Source of the DNA: an uncultured Chloroflexia bacterium
Lineage (GTDB): Bacteria; Chloroflexota; Limnocylindria; QHBO01
Length of the DNA: 64,000 nt
Assembly: GCA_963840145.1 (NCBI GenBank)
Contig: CAWIXR010000002.1
Location: 256,280 to 320,279 of the forward strand
Direction of reading: 5' to 3'
Shown: in pieces, positions 3,781-32,819 of the stretch
Numbering within the stretch: the first letter of the stretch is position 1
How the letters are laid out: each line of letters begins with the position of its first letter
Program-made: the position numbers and the translations under genes
Notes under the pieces: generated by a model
The model's database searches: none
What the model saw: the letters and a program-made list of their open reading frames with translations, nothing else
Told to the model about the DNA's origin: nothing

Positions 3781-3882
3781 GGGCCGATCCTAGCCGGAAC
3801 CGTTGTGTGCGGCGCCCGCGCCGGATATTCCCCGTGTGCGTGTAAGGGCCACGACGTGGCCGTTTCATGCACCACCGGACTC

Positions 3883-3990
3883 AATCGGCCAGGATGCGGC
3901 CGCTTGCCTGGCCGTTTCAGTCACCGAGTGAGTAATCGGCCACTTCTTGGCCGATACAGGCGCCCTGGGAATATCTCGCTCCGATCACGG
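3883..3990 (+). repeat. conserved ~110-nt intergenic element A containing perfect palindrome ATCGGCCA-cttc-TGGCCGAT (3934-3954)
   Basis: About 75% identical over ~108 nt to 32611-32717. Shared blocks are AATCGGCCA, TTGCCTGGCC, (A/T)TCGGCCACTTCTTGGCCG and GGGAATATCNCGCT. Lies in the divergent region upstream of the HK/RR operon. Confidence 0.5.
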
Positions 3991-4016
3991 GCCCCCCGCC
4001 CCCTACCATCAGTCCC

Positions 4017-5549
4017 ATGGATTGGCTCGCGGAGCTGTTCGAGACCAACCGCATCATCGTCCTCTCGGTCTACGGGCAGGTCTTCTTCGTGATGGGCCTG
4101 GCGGTCGCGCTCCAGAGCCGGCAACGGTCGCAGCTGCCGCTGGCCCGACCGCTCGGCTGGCTCGCGGCCTTCGGCCTGCTCCACGGGCTCATGATCTGGG
4201 GCTACCTGTTCGTCCCGATCCAGGCCGGCTGGCTGCCGCCGCCGGTGATCGAGGCGCTGCTCGGCCTGCAGCTGCTGATGAAGCCGATCAGCTTCGCGCT
4301 GCTCTTCCAGTTCGGGATCGAGCTGTGGATTGCGACGCGCAACGGCGAGCGCCCGCTGCCCACCATTCGGGGGCAGCCCTGGCTGCGGCTGATTCCGATC
4401 GCGACGCTGGCCCTGTGGACGGTCGCCACGGTCGTGCTGTCGACCACAGTCGCGGCGGGCTTCGTGCCCGACGTCGGTCCGTGGCTGCCCTCGCCGCAGA
4501 TCGGCGCCGCGCTCGCCGAGGTGGGAGCGCCGCTGGCGGTGGGCGACGTCGTGGCGCGCTACATGATCGCCGTGCCCGCGTCGCTGCTGGTGGCGGTGAC
4601 ATTGCGCCGCACGACGCGCCTGCTGGCGCCGATGGCCGGCCGCGGCGTCGCCACGGCACTGTCGGCCGCGTCGGTCGCGTTCGTGGTCTTCGCTATCGTC
4701 GGCGGCCTCGTGCCGATGGAGGCGCCGTTCCCGCTCGCGTCGGTGCTCAACGACCAGGTCGTGCTCGCCACGCTCGGCATCCCGATCGAGGTGTTCGTCT
4801 CGATCACCGGCCTGGCCATCGCGATCGCGGTCATCGTCAGCCTCGAGCTGTTCGAGCAGGAGACCGATCGCGCCCTCGCCGACGCTCGCCGACGCGAGCT
4901 CCTGCTCCGCGAGCGCGAGCGCATCGGCCGCGACCTGCACGACGGGATCATCCAGTCGATCTACGCCGCGGGCCTGCACCTCGAGCAGGCTACGGCCGAC
5001 ATCGGCGACGGCGGCGACGGGGCACCGGCGCGAGAGCGGATCGCGACGGTTATGGGCGAGCTGAATCGGATCACGAACGACATCCGCAGCACGATCTTCG
5101 CGCTCCGCTCCGGTGATCTCGAGGCGCGCGACGCCGAGGCGATCGTCCTGGCCGCTGCCGACGAGCTCCAGGCCCACACGCTGGTGAAGCTCGAAGTCTC
5201 GACCGATGGGCTGTTCCGGCCGCGGCTGCGTCCCGAGCAGGCGGAGGAGCTGCACCACCTCGTTACCGAGGCCTTCAGCAACGTCCTGCGCCACGCGCAC
5301 GCCAAGCACGTGAGCGTCCACATGGCCTGCACCCAGCGCCGCTTCACGCTCGAGATCCGCGACGACGGCACCGGCTTCGACCCGTCAGCGCCTCCACCGC
5401 GCGCCCGGCGGGGGCAGGCCCAGGGCCTCGCCAACATCCGCAGGCGTGCCGAGCTGCTGGACGCGACGCTCGAGGTCGAGAGCGCCCCCGGGCGCGGTAC
5501 GCGCCTCTCGCTTACGATGCCGGTGGCCACCACGCGGCGGCCGACCTGA
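4017..5549 (+). CDS. sensor histidine kinase, multi-TM N-terminal sensor + HisKA_3 + HATPase_c (NarL-partner type)
   Basis: N-terminal ~280 aa form 7-8 hydrophobic helices. H-box ERERIGRDLHDGIIQSIY is HisKA_3; the C-terminal G-box region is RGTRLSL. Followed 5 nt later by a LuxR-family RR. Confidence 0.85.
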   Translation: MDWLAELFETNRIIVLSVYGQVFFVMGLAVALQSRQRSQLPLARPLGWLAAFGLLHGLMIWGYLFVPIQAGWLPPPVIEALLGLQLLMKPISFALLFQFGIELWIATRNGERPLPTIRGQPWLRLIPIATLALWTVATVVLSTTVAAGFVPDVGPWLPSPQIGAALAEVGAPLAVGDVVARYMIAVPASLLVAVTLRRTTRLLAPMAGRGVATALSAASVAFVVFAIVGGLVPMEAPFPLASVLNDQVVLATLGIPIEVFVSITGLAIAIAVIVSLELFEQETDRALADARRRELLLRERERIGRDLHDGIIQSIYAAGLHLEQATADIGDGGDGAPARERIATVMGELNRITNDIRSTIFALRSGDLEARDAEAIVLAAADELQAHTLVKLEVSTDGLFRPRLRPEQAEELHHLVTEAFSNVLRHAHAKHVSVHMACTQRRFTLEIRDDGTGFDPSAPPPRARRGQAQGLANIRRRAELLDATLEVESAPGRGTRLSLTMPVATTRRPT

Positions 5550-5554
5550 AGCGC

Positions 5555-6250
5555 ATGACCGATACCCCCCAGAACGTCGCGCCCGCGACGCCCATCCGGA
5601 TCCTCATCGCCGATGACCACGAGGTGGTCCGCATCGGCCTCGCCGCCATGCTCGCCGCACAGGAGGGCTTCGAGGTCGTGGCGCAGGCTGCCACCGGCGA
5701 CGAGGCGACCCGGCTGGCGCTCCACCACCGGCCCGACGTGGTCGTGATGGACATCCGCATGCCTGGCGGCTCGGGGATCGACGCCTGCCGCGCGATCACC
5801 GCCGCTCGCCCCGGCACGCCCGTGATCATGCTGACCAGCCATGCCGACTCCGACGCCCTCTTCGACGCGATCGACGCCGGCGCCTCGGGCTACGTCCTGA
5901 AGCGGGTCGGCTCGCGCGAGCTGATCGACGCGGTGCGCACGGTTGCCGCCGGCGGGTCGCTGCTTGACCCCGCCGTCACCCGCCCGGTCCTCGATCGCAT
6001 CCGCAACGCCGGTCGCCTCGAGGAGGCCGGCGCCTTCGCCGATCTCACCGAGCAGGAGCGGCGCGTGCTGGCACACATCGCCGACGGTGCCTCGAACCGC
6101 CAGATCGCCGATCGCATGGGTTTGGCCGAGAAGACGGTCCGCAATTACGTCTCCAGCATCCTCGCCAAGCTGGCCCTCGAGAGCCGGTCGCAGGCGGCGG
6201 CGTACGCCATCCGCAACCGCCTCCCCGAGCTCGCGGCGAGCGAGGCATGA
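5555..6250 (+). CDS. two-component response regulator, NarL/LuxR family (REC + HTH_LuxR)
   Basis: Receiver motifs are ILIADDH, the phospho-Asp in VVVMDIRMPG, and the conserved K in VLK. The C-terminal LuxR HTH is TEQERRVLAHIADGASNRQIADRMGLAEKTVRNYVSSILAKL. Confidence 0.9.
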   Translation: MTDTPQNVAPATPIRILIADDHEVVRIGLAAMLAAQEGFEVVAQAATGDEATRLALHHRPDVVVMDIRMPGGSGIDACRAITAARPGTPVIMLTSHADSDALFDAIDAGASGYVLKRVGSRELIDAVRTVAAGGSLLDPAVTRPVLDRIRNAGRLEEAGAFADLTEQERRVLAHIADGASNRQIADRMGLAEKTVRNYVSSILAKLALESRSQAAAYAIRNRLPELAASEA

Positions 6251-12473: not shown

Positions 12474-13145
12474 ATGGCCGGCGCGGGCCGCGTCCTGATC
12501 ACCGGCGCGAGCGGTGGCGCCGGAGGGGGCGTGGTCGCGGCCTTCCTCGAAGCGGGCTGGCAGGTGGCAGCCGTCACGCGCCGCGACCCGCCTGGCGAGC
12601 CGGCCGAGGTTGCGTGGATCCGCGCCGATCTCGTCGACGCCGACGCGGCCACCGCCATGGTCGCCGAGGCGGTTACCGCGCTCGGCGGCCTCGACGCACT
12701 CGTCTGCCTCGCCGGTGGCTACTCCAGCGCGAAGCTCGAGGAGCTCGCCTGGGCCGATTTCGAGCAGCAGTTCGCGACGAGCCTGCGGCCGACGGTCGAA
12801 TCGGTCCTCGCGGCGCTCCCGGCTGTGCGGAAGTCGCCGTCCGGGGCGATCGTCACGATAAGTGCGCAGACGACCCTGAAGCCCGGGCGCAACGCCGGCC
12901 CGTACGCCGCCGCAAAGGCCGCGGTCGCGACCTGGTCGCTGTCGCTGGCGGCCGGCCTCAAGGCATCGGGCGTGCGCGTGAACTGCGTTCTGCCCGGAAC
13001 GCTGGACACCGAGGCCAACCGGGCATCGATGCCGGACGCGAAGCGCGACGCGTGGGTCGGGCCGCGCGAGCTCGGCAACCTGATCGTCTACCTCTGTTCG
13101 CCGGCCTCGAAGCCGCTGACCGGGACCGCCATCCCGATCGGCTAG
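12474..13145 (+). CDS. SDR family oxidoreductase
   Basis: N-terminal ITGASGGAGG Rossmann motif. Active-site YAAAK (YxxxK). Confidence 0.82.
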   Translation: MAGAGRVLITGASGGAGGGVVAAFLEAGWQVAAVTRRDPPGEPAEVAWIRADLVDADAATAMVAEAVTALGGLDALVCLAGGYSSAKLEELAWADFEQQFATSLRPTVESVLAALPAVRKSPSGAIVTISAQTTLKPGRNAGPYAAAKAAVATWSLSLAAGLKASGVRVNCVLPGTLDTEANRASMPDAKRDAWVGPRELGNLIVYLCSPASKPLTGTAIPIG

Positions 13146-14416
13146 CTGCCGTCCGCGAGGTCGGAGATGCTGCTCGGCGTGAGCCCCTTGGCCCGCAATC
13201 CGCGGATCATCGACGGCAGCGCGTCGAACGTCTCCCAGCCACCGAGATGCGCGAGCACGATGCTGCCGTTCGCCGCGCCGTTCACGACCTTGTCGGACAT
13301 CGACAGCGCGGTCGGGCCGCCGTCGGCGATCGGCCTCCAATCGATCGTGTCGATGTGCCACATGACCGTCTTCTTGTAGCCGGCCGCCGAGGCCGCGATG
13401 CGGACCTGTTGGTCGTGCGACCCGTACGGCGGGCGCCAGTACGGCAGCGTCGACATCCCGGTGATGCCGACGACCGTCGTGTTCGTCGAGTTGAGCTGCG
13501 ACTGCACGAACGACGACGAGGCGTGCCCCGCCGGGCACCCGGTGCCGCCGCCGCGCACGAGGTCGCAGTGGTCCTGGGTGTGATTGCCGAACTCGAAGAC
13601 CGCGGGGAAGCTGTCCATGAACTCGAGGACGGCGTTGCCGGCCGGCACCTCGGCGGCGTCGCCGGTCGGGAAGATCGTCGCGCAGACGCCGTTGAGGAGC
13701 AGGCGCTTGGCGATCGCCATCGCCGGATCGAGCCGGCCGCCCATGTCGAACGTCAGCGCGACCTCGGGACCGGCGCTGGTGAGCCGTGACCAGACCGCGG
13801 TCCCGCCATCGGCCTTCGGCCCGGTCCGGCAGTCGAGGACCCGCGCAAGGTGGTTGCCGCCCGACGGCAGCCAGGCACCGGCGAACGGCCCGCTGACGAC
13901 CGAGTAGTAGAGCGTGCCGTTGATGACTGCCGACCCCGACGCCATCGCGCTCGACGGCGAGTTCACCGTCAGGACCGGCGCGCTGACGAGGTTCCAGCTC
14001 GCGTCGAACGTGTAGGCGAGGACCTTGCCGACCGGCAGGCTGATCGCCCGATCAGGCGTGAAGTCCCGCTCGCCGACGATCCCGACGACGTACGCCACGA
14101 TCGACTCGCGGATCCAGTAGCCGGCCATCGGCCCGGTCGACATGCGCAGGAAGACGCCGCGCGTCCCGATCGACGAGCGCTGGACGGTCTGCACGCTCAA
14201 CGGGTCGACGGCGTTCGCGGAGCGGCTGCCGGTGATCGTGCCGTTCGCGTTGAAGGTGTACCCGGTGTGATGGCCGGCCTCCAGACGCATCGTCATCGGC
14301 GCCGATGGCGTGGGCGAGACGGCCGCGACCGGGCTCGGGCCGCCGACCGATGGGACGGCGAACGCGGTCACCGCCACGAGAGCGGCGAGACCGATGCGAG
14401 CGATGGTATTGCGCAT
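13142..14416 (-). CDS. secreted polysaccharide deacetylase (CE4/NodB domain)
   Basis: Signal peptide. NodB motifs TFDMGG, HTQDHCDL, PYWRPPYG. The N-terminal ~200 aa form an extra beta-rich domain. Confidence 0.8.
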   Translation of the reverse strand: MRNTIARIGLAALVAVTAFAVPSVGGPSPVAAVSPTPSAPMTMRLEAGHHTGYTFNANGTITGSRSANAVDPLSVQTVQRSSIGTRGVFLRMSTGPMAGYWIRESIVAYVVGIVGERDFTPDRAISLPVGKVLAYTFDASWNLVSAPVLTVNSPSSAMASGSAVINGTLYYSVVSGPFAGAWLPSGGNHLARVLDCRTGPKADGGTAVWSRLTSAGPEVALTFDMGGRLDPAMAIAKRLLLNGVCATIFPTGDAAEVPAGNAVLEFMDSFPAVFEFGNHTQDHCDLVRGGGTGCPAGHASSSFVQSQLNSTNTTVVGITGMSTLPYWRPPYGSHDQQVRIAASAAGYKKTVMWHIDTIDWRPIADGGPTALSMSDKVVNGAANGSIVLAHLGGWETFDALPSMIRGLRAKGLTPSSISDLADGS

Positions 14417-14435
14417 GATGGGTTCCCCCTTCGGG

Positions 14436-15554
14436 TCAGTTCAGCAGGTCGGAGAGGCTGGTCAGGGTGAATCCGCGGTCGCGGAGCCCCGGCACGATGA
14501 GCTCGAGCGCGTCGATCGTCTCGTAGCCGCCGAGGTGGAAGAGGACGTTCGAGCCGTTCACCGAGTTGTTGATGACCTTGGCCGCGATCTGGGCGGCAGT
14601 CGGGCCGCCCTGGCCGATCGGCTTCCAGTCGACCGTGTCGATGTCCCACAGGAAGGTCTTCGTATAGCCCACCGAAGCGACGGCATCGATGACCGCCTGG
14701 TTGACCGATCCGTACGGCGGGCGCCAGTAGGGCTGCGGGTTCTGCCCGGTGCCGGCGCGGAGGATGGCCTCGGCATCGGTCATCTCCTGGCGGATTCGGT
14801 TGGCGTCGAAGGACCCGGTGCATGGCCCCGTGCTCGGCGATCCGCCACCGCCGCGCGCGAGGTCGCAGTGGTACATCGTGTGGTTGGCGATCTCGAACAG
14901 CTCGGGGTGGTCGCGGATGATCGCCATCACCTGCCGGCCCTCATCTGTCTCGCTCATCACGCCGGTGGCGAAGATCGTGGCGCACACCTCATTATCGACG
15001 AGGAAGTTCATGATCTCGACCGCCGGGTCCATGCGCCCGCCCATGTCGAAGGTGAGTGCCACGCCCGGACCGGCGTCGGGGATCGTGCGGAAGGTCTGTG
15101 GCGAGCCCGCGCCGACGCGGTTGTTGGCGGTGCAGCCCGAGCCCGATGGCGGCGGGACCGGCGTGGCCGTCGGGGCCGGCAGCGGCGTGACCCCGGGGTC
15201 GCCGCTCACGATCAGGACCCAGCCGGGCTCGATGACGCCGGGGTCCGTCAGCAGTGACGGGTAGGCATCGCCGTTCCAGGCCTGGAGCTGCGTGGCGGTC
15301 GTGCCGTAGGCGCGGGCGATCCCCGTCAGCGAGTCACCCCGCTGGACGGTGTACGTCGTGCCGGTCACCGGCGACTCGTCGGGGCTCGACGAGGGCGTCG
15401 CGTCGGGGTCGTCGGACTCCGACGGTGCTGGCGAGAACGTGCCGCCACCGGGCAGGCCGATCGTTGGCGTGGACCTGGGCGTGGCCGCCGGGCTCGCGCA
15501 GGCGGAGACGGCGAGCAGCAGCGCAAGAAGGCTCGGCAGCCGGATGGAGCGCAT
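14436..15554 (-). CDS. lipoprotein with LysM domain + polysaccharide deacetylase (CE4/NodB) domain
   Basis: Lipobox LAVSAC. LysM is YTVQRGDSLTGIARAYGTTATQLQAWN. NodB motifs TFDMGG, HTMYHCDL, PYWRPPYG. Paralog of the upstream gene. Confidence 0.82.
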   Translation of the reverse strand: MRSIRLPSLLALLLAVSACASPAATPRSTPTIGLPGGGTFSPAPSESDDPDATPSSSPDESPVTGTTYTVQRGDSLTGIARAYGTTATQLQAWNGDAYPSLLTDPGVIEPGWVLIVSGDPGVTPLPAPTATPVPPPSGSGCTANNRVGAGSPQTFRTIPDAGPGVALTFDMGGRMDPAVEIMNFLVDNEVCATIFATGVMSETDEGRQVMAIIRDHPELFEIANHTMYHCDLARGGGGSPSTGPCTGSFDANRIRQEMTDAEAILRAGTGQNPQPYWRPPYGSVNQAVIDAVASVGYTKTFLWDIDTVDWKPIGQGGPTAAQIAAKVINNSVNGSNVLFHLGGYETIDALELIVPGLRDRGFTLTSLSDLLN

Positions 15555-26782: not shown

Positions 26783-28690
26783 CTACTTGAAACGGAACTC
26801 GGCGTAGTGGAAGGTGCCGTCGGTGAGCTTGAGGACGAAGGTGCGACAGGTCTGCTTCCAGGCTGGGCTCGTACTCCACCAATAGGTGTAGACGCCCTTC
26901 TTGGCGTCGTAGGTCAGGACCTTGGGGCCGGCCAGCGTCGGATCGGTCGCGTCGGCCGAACCCGCGGACCCGCAGGCATGGCTTGCGGAGGCAGGGTAGC
27001 CCGCGGCGATGACGCCCAGGCCCTGGTCGCCTCCGAGGCTGAACTGCATCTTGACCATGTTGCCGGCCTTCACCTGGTTGATGCCTGGCGGGTTGCTCAA
27101 GCCGCCGAGGAAGCCGCTGAAGTCGTAGCCCAGCCGCTGGCCCACGTTCCAGGTGCTGGCCGATGCGGTCAGGATGGTGATCTCGGCGGTGCCGGCGCCG
27201 CTGGCGATGCACGGACTGGGCGTGGCCGTGCCGGTCGGGCTGCAGGAGCTCGTGATTGGCACCCCGTTGCGGAAGATGGTGGCGGGCACCAACGAGGGAT
27301 CATCGACATGGAAAACGAGTGTCAGCGGGTTGTCCACCGTGGTCGCTGCGGTCGAGACGATCTCGAGTTGCTGGCCAACGAACTCGTAGCCCGCGGGTGC
27401 GGGGTCGAGGTCCGCCTCCGTGATCGTGACCGATCCGCCCCCGGCCCCTGCAGGCACGATCACGTCCGTCGTCACCGGCCCAGCCTCAGGCTGGGTCGTA
27501 ACCGTGCCGCCGGATTCGGGGATCGCTGCGACGGTGACCGGATCGGAGGACGTCGAACCGCACGCGTTGCTTGCCGACACCGTCACCGTGTACGTGACGC
27601 CGGGGGTGAGCACGCCGATGCTTTTCGTCCTCTCGGTGCTGCCGACCTCCCCGAGGGTCGCTCCTTGCTCGCCGTGGGCGACGTTGATCCCATAGCCCGT
27701 GATGGCGCGGCCGCCGTCATCTGCGGGGGCCACCCAGCTCACGGTCGCCTCCCCGTCTGTTGCAATCGCGACGGCCACGTTGGTTGGCGCTCCAGGCGGT
27801 CCTCCCTGGAACGTGCGAGTGACCTCGAACGAGGCCGGAATGTCCGCCGCGGATAGATAGCTCTCGTTGCCGACAACGTCGGTGAGCACGGCGTCGTTGG
27901 CCGTCCAGATGCCGAGCTCGGCGTCCATGTCGAGGAACACCTGTACGAGATAGTGGTCGGCGCCCTGGGGATCGAAACCCAGCTGCCACGTGTTTCCGCT
28001 CGGACTCATGAAGGTAATCGGCGAGCCCGGGTAGAAGCCGGCGAGGTCATCGGTGATGACCGCATCGAACTCAACCTTGCGATTCGCGGGATCGCAGTCG
28101 CCCACGTCCACGGATTGGTACGTCGGGGAAATGGAGACCAGCGTGGGCGCCGTGACGTCATCGGTGCCGTCGACCGTGACACCGCCGGGAAATCCGAGGC
28201 CGACCAGCGCTGCCGCATCCAGGTAGAACGAGTTGTAGTCCGGGTCCTGCGCACTGACGGCGACTGTCCACTCGCCCGTCGCCGCATACGGCGGGAAGGT
28301 GACATCCACCGTGAAATCGTCGGGGTTGTCCGTGGTGGCGGTGTTTCGCTCGAAGAAGCCGACCGCGTAGGCACTGCCGCGGGGTGCCCAGAAGCTGATC
28401 GTCGGACCCTCTTGGATCACTTCGCCGGACTCGGGGTCCCTCATGAGGTCCACGACGCCACTTTCGTCTGTGATCGTCGCCGTGACCGTAATCGTGACCG
28501 GGCTGGCGCCGTTGACGATCGCGGCCGGCGTGAACGCCAGTGCCTCCAGAGTCGGTGGGCTTCCGTCGTCGGCAAGCGCCGTCCCAGGAAGGCTTGCCAT
28601 GCATAGAACAGCGATCAGGGCGATTGCCAGGCGCACGGATCTGGAAGGGAGAGGAGTCAACGGGGACCTCTGGGATGTGGACCAGCTCAT
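26783..28690 (-). CDS. large secreted protein with fibronectin type III-like domain(s)
   Basis: Signal peptide RLAIALIAVLCMASLPGTALA. Fn3-like segment PGAPTNVAVAIATDGEATVSWVAPADDGGRAITGYGINV. T/S/G-rich beta repeats. 635 aa. Confidence 0.7.
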   Translation of the reverse strand: MSWSTSQRSPLTPLPSRSVRLAIALIAVLCMASLPGTALADDGSPPTLEALAFTPAAIVNGASPVTITVTATITDESGVVDLMRDPESGEVIQEGPTISFWAPRGSAYAVGFFERNTATTDNPDDFTVDVTFPPYAATGEWTVAVSAQDPDYNSFYLDAAALVGLGFPGGVTVDGTDDVTAPTLVSISPTYQSVDVGDCDPANRKVEFDAVITDDLAGFYPGSPITFMSPSGNTWQLGFDPQGADHYLVQVFLDMDAELGIWTANDAVLTDVVGNESYLSAADIPASFEVTRTFQGGPPGAPTNVAVAIATDGEATVSWVAPADDGGRAITGYGINVAHGEQGATLGEVGSTERTKSIGVLTPGVTYTVTVSASNACGSTSSDPVTVAAIPESGGTVTTQPEAGPVTTDVIVPAGAGGGSVTITEADLDPAPAGYEFVGQQLEIVSTAATTVDNPLTLVFHVDDPSLVPATIFRNGVPITSSCSPTGTATPSPCIASGAGTAEITILTASASTWNVGQRLGYDFSGFLGGLSNPPGINQVKAGNMVKMQFSLGGDQGLGVIAAGYPASASHACGSAGSADATDPTLAGPKVLTYDAKKGVYTYWWSTSPAWKQTCRTFVLKLTDGTFHYAEFRFK

Positions 28691-29259
28691 GTATTACCTC
28701 GTCGGGTCAGCACAGCGCCGAGCGCGAGGCTGGACGCCAGTCCAGCACGCAATAGGGTCTGTCGCACGGGTGAGCTCTCCCAAAAAGGACGGCCGATCTG
28801 CGATCGCACTGGTTTGCGCGATGCGGGAGACCCACCGGGCACGAGCCCGAGTCTGGTCTCGAATCACTCCCGGCGCATCAGTGCCAGTACTGAGTGGGGT
28901 ACGGAACGGCGGCCGGGTGGCCGGCATGGCCGAAACGGAGCCGCCCGTCCCGAGCGGGCTGGACGACGCCTCGTTAGGCGGCCGACCGGATTCCACTGGG
29001 CCAGATCGACGACGGAGTTGTCGCGCGACGTATGCGGCATTTGCGGTTACGGTCCGTCTGAAGAGCGGGGCCAACGGGCGTCCGCCAGGATGACCGTCTT
29101 CGCATACCAGTCGCATCCTGCGTCTCGGTCGTCGAGGCGTGCAAGGTGGATCTCTGTCTCCAACTTCTTCTTCGAACTGACTGCGAGCACGGGGCAGGCG
29201 GCACGTCCCGCGCGCCCGTGTCGGTCTGCAACGTCGCAGATTGCACCAATCAACGACCT

Positions 29260-29622
29260 CTATTCCGAACTCGCGTTCAGCCGGACACGGGCGAGGTCGA
29301 CGGCCATCGTCAGGTCCGTCATCCGCACGTACTCGTCGCTGGGTTCAGCCGCATAAGATTCAGGACCGGCAAGCCAGTCCCACAGACTTGGATCGACCTC
29401 ATCCAAGGAATGCGCGAGGTCGAGCAGCTCTTCTGGCGATGCTTCCGAGACGCGTTGCTCCCGCTCGTAGTCGTCGGGTAGTCCCCACTTCTCCGCAAGA
29501 GCGAGCAGCCGGTCACTACGAACGGCAGCAGGCATACGCCCTTCACTGCTCATCAGAGACCTCCAGCAATCATTGATTCTCTCCCGAACGATCCATCGCC
29601 GTGTGTACGGGAGATCGTCCAC
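29260..29622 (-). CDS. hypothetical protein (acidic, 120 aa) in lower-GC gap
   Basis: The only sizeable ORF in the 28.7-29.7 kb gap. Local GC is lower, about 60%. No recognised domain. Confidence 0.35.
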   Translation of the reverse strand: MDDLPYTRRWIVRERINDCWRSLMSSEGRMPAAVRSDRLLALAEKWGLPDDYEREQRVSEASPEELLDLAHSLDEVDPSLWDWLAGPESYAAEPSDEYVRMTDLTMAVDLARVRLNASSE

Positions 29623-29723
29623 CCGTTCGCTTCCCGCCGCGGAACTCGTTCGTCGACGCTCGTGAAGGTCCTGACGTGCTTGCCTGACCTCGCGCGAAGG
29701 GCGTGCGACCGCGCGAATTCTCC

Positions 29724-30467
29724 CTAGAGCAGCGAGGTGTCGTAGTCCGGGTGCGGGTTCGGGACGAGCGGGCGGACGCGCTGATAGCCCTCGTAGATCG
29801 GCTCTTCCGACTCGATCGCGCCGCGCAGCGACGCGATGACCTGTGCCATATCGGCCTGGCTGGCGTGGCTCTCGAGCGCGGCCAGCTTGCGCGGCGCGAC
29901 CGCCGTGATGTCGATGCGGTGCGTGGCGCCCTGCTCCTCGGGAGAGAGGTCGTAGAGGTTGCCGCCCGGATCGAAGACCGGGGAGACGACGAACACCGAA
30001 TTCGGCGCCCGGCCCGTGTCCGATAGCCGTTCCACCGCCCAGCGCGTGGCGTTGCCGACGACGATGTGGTCTGGGTGGCCGGTGACGCCGTGCGGGCCGA
30101 AGGTGATGACCGCCTGCGGGCGGACGCGCGCCAACCAGTCGGCGATCTCCTCGACAAGCTGGTCGAAGGGCGCATCGGCCAGTCCGCCGTCGGGGTAGTC
30201 GAGGCCCTGGACGAGGTCGATCCCGATCGCCTTTGCGGCGCCGATGAGCTCCGACTCGCGGACCCCGCCGAATGCGGGGTCCGGCTCACCGTCCGGCGTT
30301 CCCGCCTCGCCGCGCGTGACGACCAGCAGCGACGTCTGCAGGTACGCGTCGTACGACAGCGAGAGGGCGCCGGCGCACCCGACGCTCTCGTCGTCGGGGT
30401 GGGCGAGGACGGCCGCGATGCCGCCTGGCTTGGGCGGCCCGTGCATTCTCGGCGCGGCCTGGCTCAC
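29724..30467 (-). CDS. PIG-L/LmbE family N-acetylglucosaminyl deacetylase
   Basis: Motif AHPDDESVGCAGAL (HPDDE) plus HPDH further on. Probable GTG start at 30467 overlapping the upstream TGA, with AAGGAGG 4 nt upstream. Alternative ATG at 30446. Confidence 0.75.
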   Translation of the reverse strand: MSQAAPRMHGPPKPGGIAAVLAHPDDESVGCAGALSLSYDAYLQTSLLVVTRGEAGTPDGEPDPAFGGVRESELIGAAKAIGIDLVQGLDYPDGGLADAPFDQLVEEIADWLARVRPQAVITFGPHGVTGHPDHIVVGNATRWAVERLSDTGRAPNSVFVVSPVFDPGGNLYDLSPEEQGATHRIDITAVAPRKLAALESHASQADMAQVIASLRGAIESEEPIYEGYQRVRPLVPNPHPDYDTSLL

Positions 30468-30872: not shown

Positions 30873-32543
30873 ATGGTCGCGGGTGGTGCGCGCAGGCACA
30901 CTCGGGCCGTGGATCGCGCTCGGGCGCTGAACATCCTCTTCGCGCTTGCCATCGCGGCCGTTCCGGTCGGGTTGGTGCTCGCCGTGCGCGGCCTCCCGGC
31001 CGTCGACCTCGCCGATTCGGCGCTGCCGTGGCTGCCGGCGGCCTTCCTCGCCACGCTCGTGCTCGTGGCCGCGTTAGGGGCGCTGGCGGCATTGGTTCGG
31101 GCGCTCCGGACCGGCTCGATCGCCAACCTGCTCGAGTCGGGCGCGTCGGCCGCGCTGGCCGGTGGTGCCGTCGTCATGCTGACCGGCGAAGGGTCCCTGG
31201 CGGCCCCGGTGCTCGCCGCGGCCGTGCTGCTGGCCGTCGCGCCGTTCGTCGGAACACGCGTGGTCGCCGGCGGGCCGGCCCGGCTGATCGGTGCGGCGGT
31301 GGCGGTCATGGCGGTGGCCGAGGCGTTCGCGCTACTGACCGTCATTCCAGTGACGGCCGACCTGCTGGAACCGCTCGCGCCGGTCCTACTCGGGCTGGCG
31401 GTCCTGGCCGCCGGCGTCGCGGTCGTCCTGGCCACGGGGCTCAGATCCGCGAGTGCCGGGCTGGTGGCGGCCGGGGCGGTCGGTCTGCTGGCGGATCGCG
31501 ACGGCTCGCTGGAAGGGCTCATCGGCCTGGCCGCGCTGATGGCCGGGCAGGTGCTGGCGATCGCGGCGGCGCTGGCGCCGGAGCCCGACGAGGTCGAGGA
31601 ACGCCTTCCGGAGCTCGCCGGCCGCCTGGCCGATGCGGTCCTGCGCTTCGACGGTCACCTGCGGCTCCGCGATTGGAATCACGCGGCGGCCACCCTGCTC
31701 GCAATCGACACCTCGTCGGCGGGCGTGCGGATCGACGATCTGCTCGGCGTCTCGGTCGCCGACCTTCCGTCGGGCGACGCGACCACCGTCTCGCGCGGCG
31801 GCGTCGGAGGGCTGGAGGTGGCGATGCATCGGGCCGGGCCGGGCGTGGTCGCCGTCGTCCGCGAGGCGGGAGGCACGCCCGAGGTCGAGCGCCTCGGCAA
31901 CGAGCTGCGCACGACGATCGAGGAGCTGCTGCGCGCGCGACGCACGATCGATCTCCAGCGCGGCGAGCTCGAGCGCTCGTCGACGGTCGACCCGCTCACC
32001 GGCATCTCCAGCCGCGGCGCGATCCTCGAACGGCTGCGGATCGAGGTTGCCCAGGCGCGCCGCTACCGGCACCCGCTTGCGGTCGTGCTGCTCGACGTCG
32101 ATCGCTTCGGCGAGATCAACGAGGCGTACGGCATCGCCGGGGGAGACGCGGTGCTGCGCGAGGTCGCGCTGCGCATGCGGCTGCGCGTACGCGAGGCCGA
32201 TGCCCTCGGCCGCGCGGGTTCGGACGGGTTTCTCGCGACGCTACCGCACACCGACGAGGCCGGCGCTGCGACCTTCGCCGATGCCCTGCGCATCCGGCTC
32301 GGTCTGCGGCCGGTGCGCGTCGGTGACTCGGAGCTGCAGGTCACGGTCAGCATCGGGGTCGCGACGATGCGCCCCGGCGAGGACCTCGATGTCGACGGTG
32401 TGCTGGCGCGGGTGCAGGAGGCGCTCGACAGCGCGCGCGGCGCGGGGGGCAATCGGATCGCCCTCGATCGGATGCACGGGCTCGCCCGTCTCGCCGACCG
32501 CCACCCGACCGACGAGCTCGATGACGATCGAGCGGTCGAGTAG
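30873..32543 (+). CDS. membrane protein with C-terminal degenerate GGDEF domain (GSDGF)
   Basis: About 8 TM helices, then a linker/PAS-like region, then a GGDEF domain: DPLTGISSRG, LLDVDRFGEINEAYG, and RAGSDGFLATLP in place of RxGGDEF. Confidence 0.8.
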   Translation: MVAGGARRHTRAVDRARALNILFALAIAAVPVGLVLAVRGLPAVDLADSALPWLPAAFLATLVLVAALGALAALVRALRTGSIANLLESGASAALAGGAVVMLTGEGSLAAPVLAAAVLLAVAPFVGTRVVAGGPARLIGAAVAVMAVAEAFALLTVIPVTADLLEPLAPVLLGLAVLAAGVAVVLATGLRSASAGLVAAGAVGLLADRDGSLEGLIGLAALMAGQVLAIAAALAPEPDEVEERLPELAGRLADAVLRFDGHLRLRDWNHAAATLLAIDTSSAGVRIDDLLGVSVADLPSGDATTVSRGGVGGLEVAMHRAGPGVVAVVREAGGTPEVERLGNELRTTIEELLRARRTIDLQRGELERSSTVDPLTGISSRGAILERLRIEVAQARRYRHPLAVVLLDVDRFGEINEAYGIAGGDAVLREVALRMRLRVREADALGRAGSDGFLATLPHTDEAGAATFADALRIRLGLRPVRVGDSELQVTVSIGVATMRPGEDLDVDGVLARVQEALDSARGAGGNRIALDRMHGLARLADRHPTDELDDDRAVE

Positions 32544-32571
32544 GCCGCGCCGCTATTCCTGGAGCGCGTGT

Positions 32572-32717
32572 ATCGGCCAAGCAGTGGCCGATACAGTCAC
32601 GGCGCGAATGAATCGGCCACGGTGAGGGCGTTTGCCTGGCCCTTTCAAGCGTCCACGGCATATTCGGCCACTTCTTGGCCGCTTCATCCAGCGGGGGAAT
32701 ATCGCTCGGCCGAAAGG
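32572..32717 (+). repeat. intergenic element B, homolog of element A, plus a second perfect palindrome ATCGGCCA-agcag-TGGCCGAT (32572-32592)
   Basis: See element A. The block 32611-32717 aligns with 3883-3990. Extra half-sites (CGGCCAG/CGGCCG) follow to about 32760. Confidence 0.5.
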
Positions 32718-32774: not shown

Positions 32775-32819
32775 TTATCCACCGCTGTCATACAATGTGT
32801 GGACAAGCACGTTGATAAC
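32775..32819. promoter_or_regulatory. cluster of three DnaA-box-like 9-mers (TTATCCACC; TTGTCCACA on minus; TTATCAACG on minus) upstream of thyX
   Basis: GTTATCCACC at 32774-32783. TGTGGACAA at 32798-32806 is the reverse complement of the actinobacterial DnaA-box consensus TTGTCCACA. GTTGATAAC at 32811-32819. Confidence 0.3.

Follow-up and report, generated by a model that had tools for sequence, protein, structure and literature searches.

The two similar blocks of non-coding DNA that lie upstream of a two-component operon and upstream of thyX in the 64-kb stretch of DNA analysed here (the window) are best explained, with a probability that we put at about 70%, as members of a single family of MITE-type elements, miniature transposable elements that are non-coding and non-autonomous, in Candidatus Limnocylindria (Chloroflexota). 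As judged by sequence comparison, the family displays an inverted-repeat architecture, TA flanks, a filled and an empty version of one site, a patchy distribution and rapid change, and neither a coding signal nor an RNA-family signal was detected within the element. The initial annotation had preferred another explanation, an operator for the NarL/LuxR-type response regulator, which would control its own synthesis and include thyX in its regulon; one of its fallbacks, a REP-like repeat family, proved essentially right and is refined here to a MITE-type dispersed repeat with an apparent TA duplication. Exact copies of the window's ThyX and response regulator were found on ENA metagenome contigs, and the closest named homologues of its ThyX and kinase belong to Candidatus Limnocylindria, an abundant, uncultured soil class.

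The similarity between the two regions had been described as a conserved block of ~110 nt, with about 75% identity between positions 3883-3990 and 32611-32717. The similarity is real, and its level was nearly as claimed (79/110 identical, 72%), but its extent had been set too small: true homology begins 55 nt to the left of that block and the repeat is 144 bp long. A repeat search of the window recovered it as 150 nt at 71% identity, ungapped. Copy A (3828-3971) and copy B (32556-32699) are both exactly 144 bp and match at 101/144 positions (70%) with zero indels, against a gapped null of 52.8 +/- 1.8% (maximum 60.4%) for 3000 random 144-nt segments of the window. Equal length, lack of indels and an identity of 70% versus 53% coincide with the same order and spacing of internal sites; they show common descent of the copies rather than a mere sharing of sites. 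The features of the two copies are given below; none is assigned to a strand.

3826..3827, TA left of copy A, read from the sequence
3828..3971, copy A, 144-bp element between the divergent genes for a 143-aa membrane protein (minus strand, start 3780) and a HisKA_3 kinase (start 4017)
3844..3864, copy A site 1, palindrome GGCCAC-GAC-GTGGCC from the pattern search, part of the left terminal inverted repeat (3828-3869)
3884..3917, copy A central split palindrome ATCGGCCA-N17-TGGCCG, which includes the conserved TTGCCTGGCC block; 28 of its 34 positions agree with copy B
3935..3955, copy A site 3, perfect palindrome ATCGGCCA-CTTCT-TGGCCGAT with zero pattern mismatches, inside the right terminal inverted repeat (3930-3971)
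3972..3973, TA right of copy A, read from the sequence
32554..32555, TA left of copy B, which together with 32700-32701 forms the putative target-site duplication
32556..32699, copy B, 144-bp element between the stop of a GGDEF gene (32541-32543) and the thyX promoter/leader region; nhmmer E 5e-41
32572..32592, copy B site 1, perfect palindrome ATCGGCCA-AGCAG-TGGCCGAT, with the loop in the opposite orientation to that of site 3
32612..32645, copy B central split palindrome, from the pattern search and the comparison with copy A
32663..32683, copy B site 3, TTCGGCCA-CTTCT-TGGCCGCT, from the pattern search and the comparison with copy A
32700..32701, TA right of copy B

Each copy carries three GGCCA/TGGCC sites at equal spacing (40 and 51 nt; 3844/3884/3935 in copy A and 32572/32612/32663 in copy B), and the palindrome pattern, with up to three mismatches allowed, matched 11 times in the window where 0.65 matches were expected. 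Site 3 of copy A is the perfect inverted repeat already recognized by the initial annotation, which had given it 20 bp, a 4-nt spacer and positions 3934-3954; the palindrome stands, although it measures 21 bp with a 5-nt spacer and lies one position further on. The sequences taken there for extra half-sites are likewise present, and they are in fact both arms of the central split palindrome CGGCCA-N17-TGGCC. The outer sites are embedded in terminal inverted repeats of ~40 bp, the left end matching the reverse complement of the right at 30/42 positions in copy A and 30/44 in copy B. Their consensus is 5'-TTCCsCC..GGGCGTAWCGGCCAC-TKC-TTGGCCGAT, each holding one 8+8 palindrome, and the end of the element can also be written TTCCsCC..CGGCCACTKCTTGGCCGAT, preceded by TA. 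An nhmmer profile of four copies matches every element in both orientations, with E ~1e-41 on the forward and ~1e-22 on the reverse strand (copy A alone scores 6e-42, and 1e-21 when compared with its reverse complement); the element as a whole is therefore an imperfect palindrome. As RNA, each copy is predicted to form one long hairpin (z = -6.0 for A, -3.9 for B), and the fold of single-stranded DNA gave z = -5.6 (A) and -3.2 (B).

A protein-coding function finds no support. The element is rich in open frames because it is GC-rich (62%, or 62.5% in copy A, and more A+T-rich than the window at 70.4%), and the frames differ between copies A and B, as the claim that no conserved peptide is encoded had implied.

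The thyX locus provides the comparison of a filled with an empty site. Copy B is missing from all five syntenic thyX loci of Candidatus Limnocylindria relatives (L126-L129 and L207; ThyX 77-96% identical). At the closest empty site (L207, ThyX 96%) the equivalent sequence is gcgcggTAtcgacc, which has one TA, and deleting 32556-32699 plus one TA from the window renders its flanks collinear with L207, raising the global alignment score from 164 to 294. A TA present twice at the filled site and once at the empty one would be the signature of a target-site duplication, which we infer from this one filled/empty pair at ~4% divergence and from the TA at eight element ends: it is found on both flanks of copy A, copy B, the short form of the sister strain (L002) and the copy in L007. 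The flanking TA could alternatively be part of the terminal repeat. The heptamer GGGAATA, which is simply the terminal GGAA of the element followed by the flanking TA, occurs three times in the window, each time at an element end.

Copy B is present only in the window genome and in a contig of a sister strain (L001), and from this distribution it is, in all likelihood, a recent insertion. Over the 6.9 kb shared by the window and L001 there were 15 mutational events, four of which fall within the 144 bp plus the right TA junction, where ~0.3 would be expected. At position 2828 of L001, a 2-bp deletion lies exactly at the junction of copy B with its right TA (window 32699-32700); this could reflect an assembly error or instability of the junction.

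The same five relatives that lack copy B retain another, conserved motif upstream of thyX. In all of them it consists of CACAAGATAGCGG, followed after ~10 nt by TTATCCACA-ccgctacatgt-TGTGGATAA, the last part being an inverted pair of DnaA-box-like 9-mers, and it is placed 30-50 nt ahead of a -10 box and an apparently leaderless thyX start. In the window it occupies 32775-32819 (TTATCCAC at 32775-32782, TACAAT at 32791-32796, TGTGGACAA at 32798-32806 and GTTGATAAC at 32811-32819), and elsewhere ~9930-9990 in L126, ~9915-9975 in L127, ~8660-8710 in L128 and ~9930-9985 in L129. As a candidate regulatory site of thyX, it is this motif that is conserved, rather than the 144-bp element. A second difference from the relatives was noted at some distance from copy B: a gene for a 635-aa fibronectin type III protein (26783-28690) stands between the FeS-assembly and PIG-L genes, and it looks like a lineage-specific insertion because these two genes are adjacent in L207 and L126-L128. 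The ~1 kb downstream of it (28691-29726) contains no clear gene.

Copy A has a different history. The operon downstream of it encodes the HisKA_3 kinase and the NarL-type response regulator (5555-6250), and 77 loci of this kinase were fetched from JGI metagenomes, of which ~50 retain the upstream region and were read directly. The element was not found in most of these ~50 orthologous upstream regions, and only the closest relatives have copies: by nhmmer, L130 and L187 (kinase 86-89% identical) carry the element and L166 a single unit, and a separate look-up added L208 (kinase 90% identical). In L130, L187 and L208 the palindromes bear shared disabling mutations (TGTCC, TCGCC) that are not compensated. 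In the sister strain (L002, extended as L209), locus A contains a 55-bp form with a single palindrome, strongly diverged and still flanked by TA on both sides, within flanks that are ~98-99.6% identical to the window; recombination between the outer palindromes would yield such a form. The comparison of these loci thus portrays the kinase-upstream copy as older, changing shape between strains and apparently decaying in sister lineages.

The two likely core promoters of this intergenic gap both lie outside the 144-bp element. TACCAT (4004-4009) precedes the kinase start ATG (4017) by 6-8 nt and TAGGAT (minus strand, 3792-3787) precedes the membrane-protein start GTG (3780) by 6-7 nt; both are conserved in ~50 orthologous loci, and such TANNNT boxes directly ahead of the two genes suggest leaderless transcripts. 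Only ~9 nt separate the two boxes in some relatives.

The kinase gap also holds at least three other, unrelated palindromic repeat families, acquired independently in other Limnocylindria lineages. A 142-nt tandem unit in L137 (583-791) contains TGACCGATATTTCGG four times; L204 (~700-900) has four CCGATTCATCGG-type palindromes; and in L142 (~430-590), L144 and L146 an inverted pair surrounds CGGTGCCGATAAATATCGGGCCG. Small repeats thus seem to have landed in this gap again and again.

Further members of the family were few. A strict DNA pattern gave 0 matches in JGI metagenome contigs, and six-frame translations of the element had no match among 5.8 billion proteins. A loose pattern searched against genome contigs gave mostly chance matches across phyla, L007 and L075 being the only true members among the matches listed. 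L007 has one copy, between co-directional SRAP and DUF5612 genes. L075, a Limnocylindria MAG, has two within 1 kb: the first (L075a) takes up the whole space between alcohol dehydrogenase and glyoxalase genes whose 3' ends converge, and the second (L075b) lies between the divergent glyoxalase and beta-lactamase-like genes. The contexts are thus all intergenic and functionally unrelated, whether divergent (A, L075b), co-directional (B, L007) or convergent (L075a). The 21-mer of copy A site 3 was found twice in L075.

In L075 the outer palindromes are direct and not inverted, which is unusual for terminal inverted repeats. Within each copy they are identical down to the loop, which is CTTCT twice in one copy and CTTCC twice in the other, and they differ between the copies (positions 4097-4117 and 4002-4024; 4927-4950 and 5030-5050). 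Such identity within an element suggests homogenization, for instance by gene conversion.

The window itself contains two copies, at unrelated loci, and no further copy was found in the sister strain over 13.8 kb beyond the window (6 kb on the left side, 7.7 kb on the right). Two copies in ~78 kb of this lineage would allow for anything from roughly 10 to a few hundred copies in a genome; because searches of public data found few, the family may be small. An 18-mer searched in viral contigs gave four chance matches, all within coding sequence, so no link to phage emerges. No transposase was recognized among the ~57 open reading frames of the window or next to any copy. The largest direct repeats of the window (13218-13782 versus 14506-15082, 71-81% identity) are of another kind, two tandem paralogous genes for polysaccharide deacetylases (13142-15554), one with a LysM domain.

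The features by which bacterial MITEs are recognized, namely a short non-coding sequence, terminal inverted repeats, a TA target-site duplication (here from one filled/empty pair) and polymorphism of presence and absence, are found together in this element (PMC2229807). By analogy, a TA-targeting DDE transposase encoded elsewhere would bind the terminal repeats, probably contacting the GGCCA/TGGCC arms, excise the element, paste it into a TA and thereby duplicate that TA; the best-known enzymes of this kind are those of the IS630/Tc1-mariner type. Some IS5-group elements also make 2-bp TA duplications. Side effects on neighbouring genes are possible: in a transcript of the GGDEF gene, the 144 nt of copy B would form a long hairpin at the 3' end of that gene.

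The likeliest of the rival accounts holds that the element is of the REP/REPIN type, an inverted doublet of repetitive extragenic palindromes that forms a hairpin in single-stranded DNA and is copied by a single-copy RAYT, the single palindromes being decaying remnants. A, B and L007 do have inverted outer palindromes, the element forms one hairpin over its whole length, every copy is extragenic, singlets occur in L002 and L166, and the arrangement varies between strains, all of which agrees with the published description of REPINs (PMC3116915). An inverted palindrome doublet, a hairpin and an extragenic position are thus found here too, except for the direct outer palindromes of L075; insertion without target-site duplication, however, is not what the thyX locus displays, where two flanking TAs face a single TA at the empty site. 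HUH/Y1 transposition is not known to yield a target-site duplication. Moreover, no RAYT was seen within the window, the observed density is low compared with the usual hundreds of REPINs, and the GTAG head typical of REPs is missing. We regard this account as unlikely.

A MITE could also have acquired a function, or be acquiring one, if its six CGGCCA half-sites were bound by a helix-turn-helix protein of the host or derived from the transposase, such that insertion rewires or insulates neighbouring promoters. The independent colonization of the kinase gap by several repeat families points this way, since it could reflect selection for insertions rather than mere tolerance at a hotspot. We nevertheless consider such co-option improbable.

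Improbable as well is the reading preferred by the initial annotation, in which GGCCA-N5-TGGCC forms a functional operator array bound by a dimeric helix-turn-helix regulator, the adjacent NarL-type protein or another, so that the kinase operon and thyX are controlled together. The geometry of the palindromes suits a dimer, there are three sites whose spacing is conserved, and copy A lies between two divergent promoters. Conservation between A and B is, furthermore, clustered in the palindromic sites (19/21 and 28/34 identical), and the spacers beside the central palindrome are near random at just 10/19 and 8/17 identical positions, a pattern that would also fit functional protein-binding sites and may reflect either selection for mobility alone or some use by the host. 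The sites are nevertheless not conserved at the orthologous loci, the thyX copy being absent from 5 syntenic loci and the kinase copy from most of ~50, and a lack of conservation in relatives is what the initial annotation had itself named as evidence against its operator. The GerE-type helix-turn-helix of the response regulator (AEKTVRNYVS..LAKL) is nearly invariant across 20 orthologues, including lineages without the palindrome such as L132 (helix-turn-helix region 96% identical), so a conserved autoregulatory operator would not be this palindrome. The likely core promoters fall outside the element, no sigma-70-type promoter pattern was found in either region, some copies occupy contexts without a promoter, including that between convergent 3' ends, and decayed copies lose the palindrome without compensation.

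The remaining fallback of the initial annotation, a structured non-coding RNA acting as a small RNA or as a cis-acting leader of three hairpins, could claim the strong predicted fold but is very improbable: Rfam gave no match at the gathering threshold over the window and at E <= 1, for both regions, only a meaningless microRNA (E = 0.19); the covariation term of RNAalifold was unfavourable (+1.45), the stems being invariant and not covarying; both strands fold symmetrically, as those of any inverted repeat would; neither a promoter nor a terminator pattern was found; and the element is missing at orthologous loci.

Several narrower candidates were rejected. A promoter borne by the element (TTGGCC-N16-GAATAT) lacks a conserved final T and a sigma-70 pattern, and the real -10 boxes lie elsewhere. 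For a SigB/SigF-like -10 of the GGGTAT type or an ECF-type GGAAT -35 there was no conserved downstream partner, the GGAATA in question being the end of the element plus TA, and a sigma-28 -10 (GCCGATAA-like) was at the wrong distance from any TAAA and not conserved. The copies stand singly at core loci and not in cassette arrays as integron attC sites do, and an intrinsic terminator is contradicted by the lack of a T-tract and of any terminator pattern in the two regions.

With the MITE as the preferred reading, the tempting regulon link between the two-component system and thyX is removed as false, and the case illustrates how a mobile repeat can mimic an operator array, with perfect palindromes at constant spacing just upstream of genes. 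What is gained is the definition, in Candidatus Limnocylindria, of a MITE family with a length of 144 bp, TA on its flanks and a palindrome in each terminal repeat. Its members can serve as strain markers, since two near-identical strains differ mainly at these sites, and they mark intergenic places that tolerate insertion. In other respects the finding is an ordinary one: the element is of a familiar kind and only this family of it was previously undescribed. A full-text literature search pairing Candidatus Limnocylindria with 'palindromic' found no paper.

Among known systems, REPINs share with this element two short inverted palindromes that fold with their spacer as one hairpin, an extragenic position and decaying singlets (PMC3116915). 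The flanking TA duplication here, by contrast, argues for cut-and-paste transposition of the DDE type rather than the action of a RAYT, none of which was seen in the window, and the density is lower. RUP of Streptococcus pneumoniae, which is mobilized by IS630-Spn1, is likewise short and non-autonomous, with terminal inverted repeats and insertion into a duplicated TA (PMC2229807). ISY100, of the IS630 family, also targets TA, which is duplicated on insertion, and has a transposase whose helix-turn-helix motifs bind the terminal repeats (PMC2170065). Since neither a transposase of the IS630 type nor a full-length element with matching ends turned up here, the link to RUP and IS630 is one of mechanism only. 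Bacterial MITEs in general are shorter than 200 bp, encode no protein, have terminal inverted repeats with 5'-TA-3' termini and a target-site duplication, and give rise to long stem-loop transcripts; their boundaries are set by comparing filled with empty sites (PMC2229807), as was done at thyX. The Correia/NEMIS elements of Neisseria differ from the present family in phylum and show no sequence similarity to it; the present element has a high GC content (62%), an 8+8 palindrome within each terminal repeat and no detected promoter-like or IHF-like motif. Two copies were observed in the 64-kb window; those of Neisseria number in the hundreds per genome. In construction the likeness is extensive: Correia/NEMIS elements are non-coding and ~105-155 bp long, with terminal inverted repeats of ~25 bp or longer, TA at both ends and a target duplication, they are mostly intergenic, they occur in long and short length variants, and their transcripts form long hairpins (PMC2229807).
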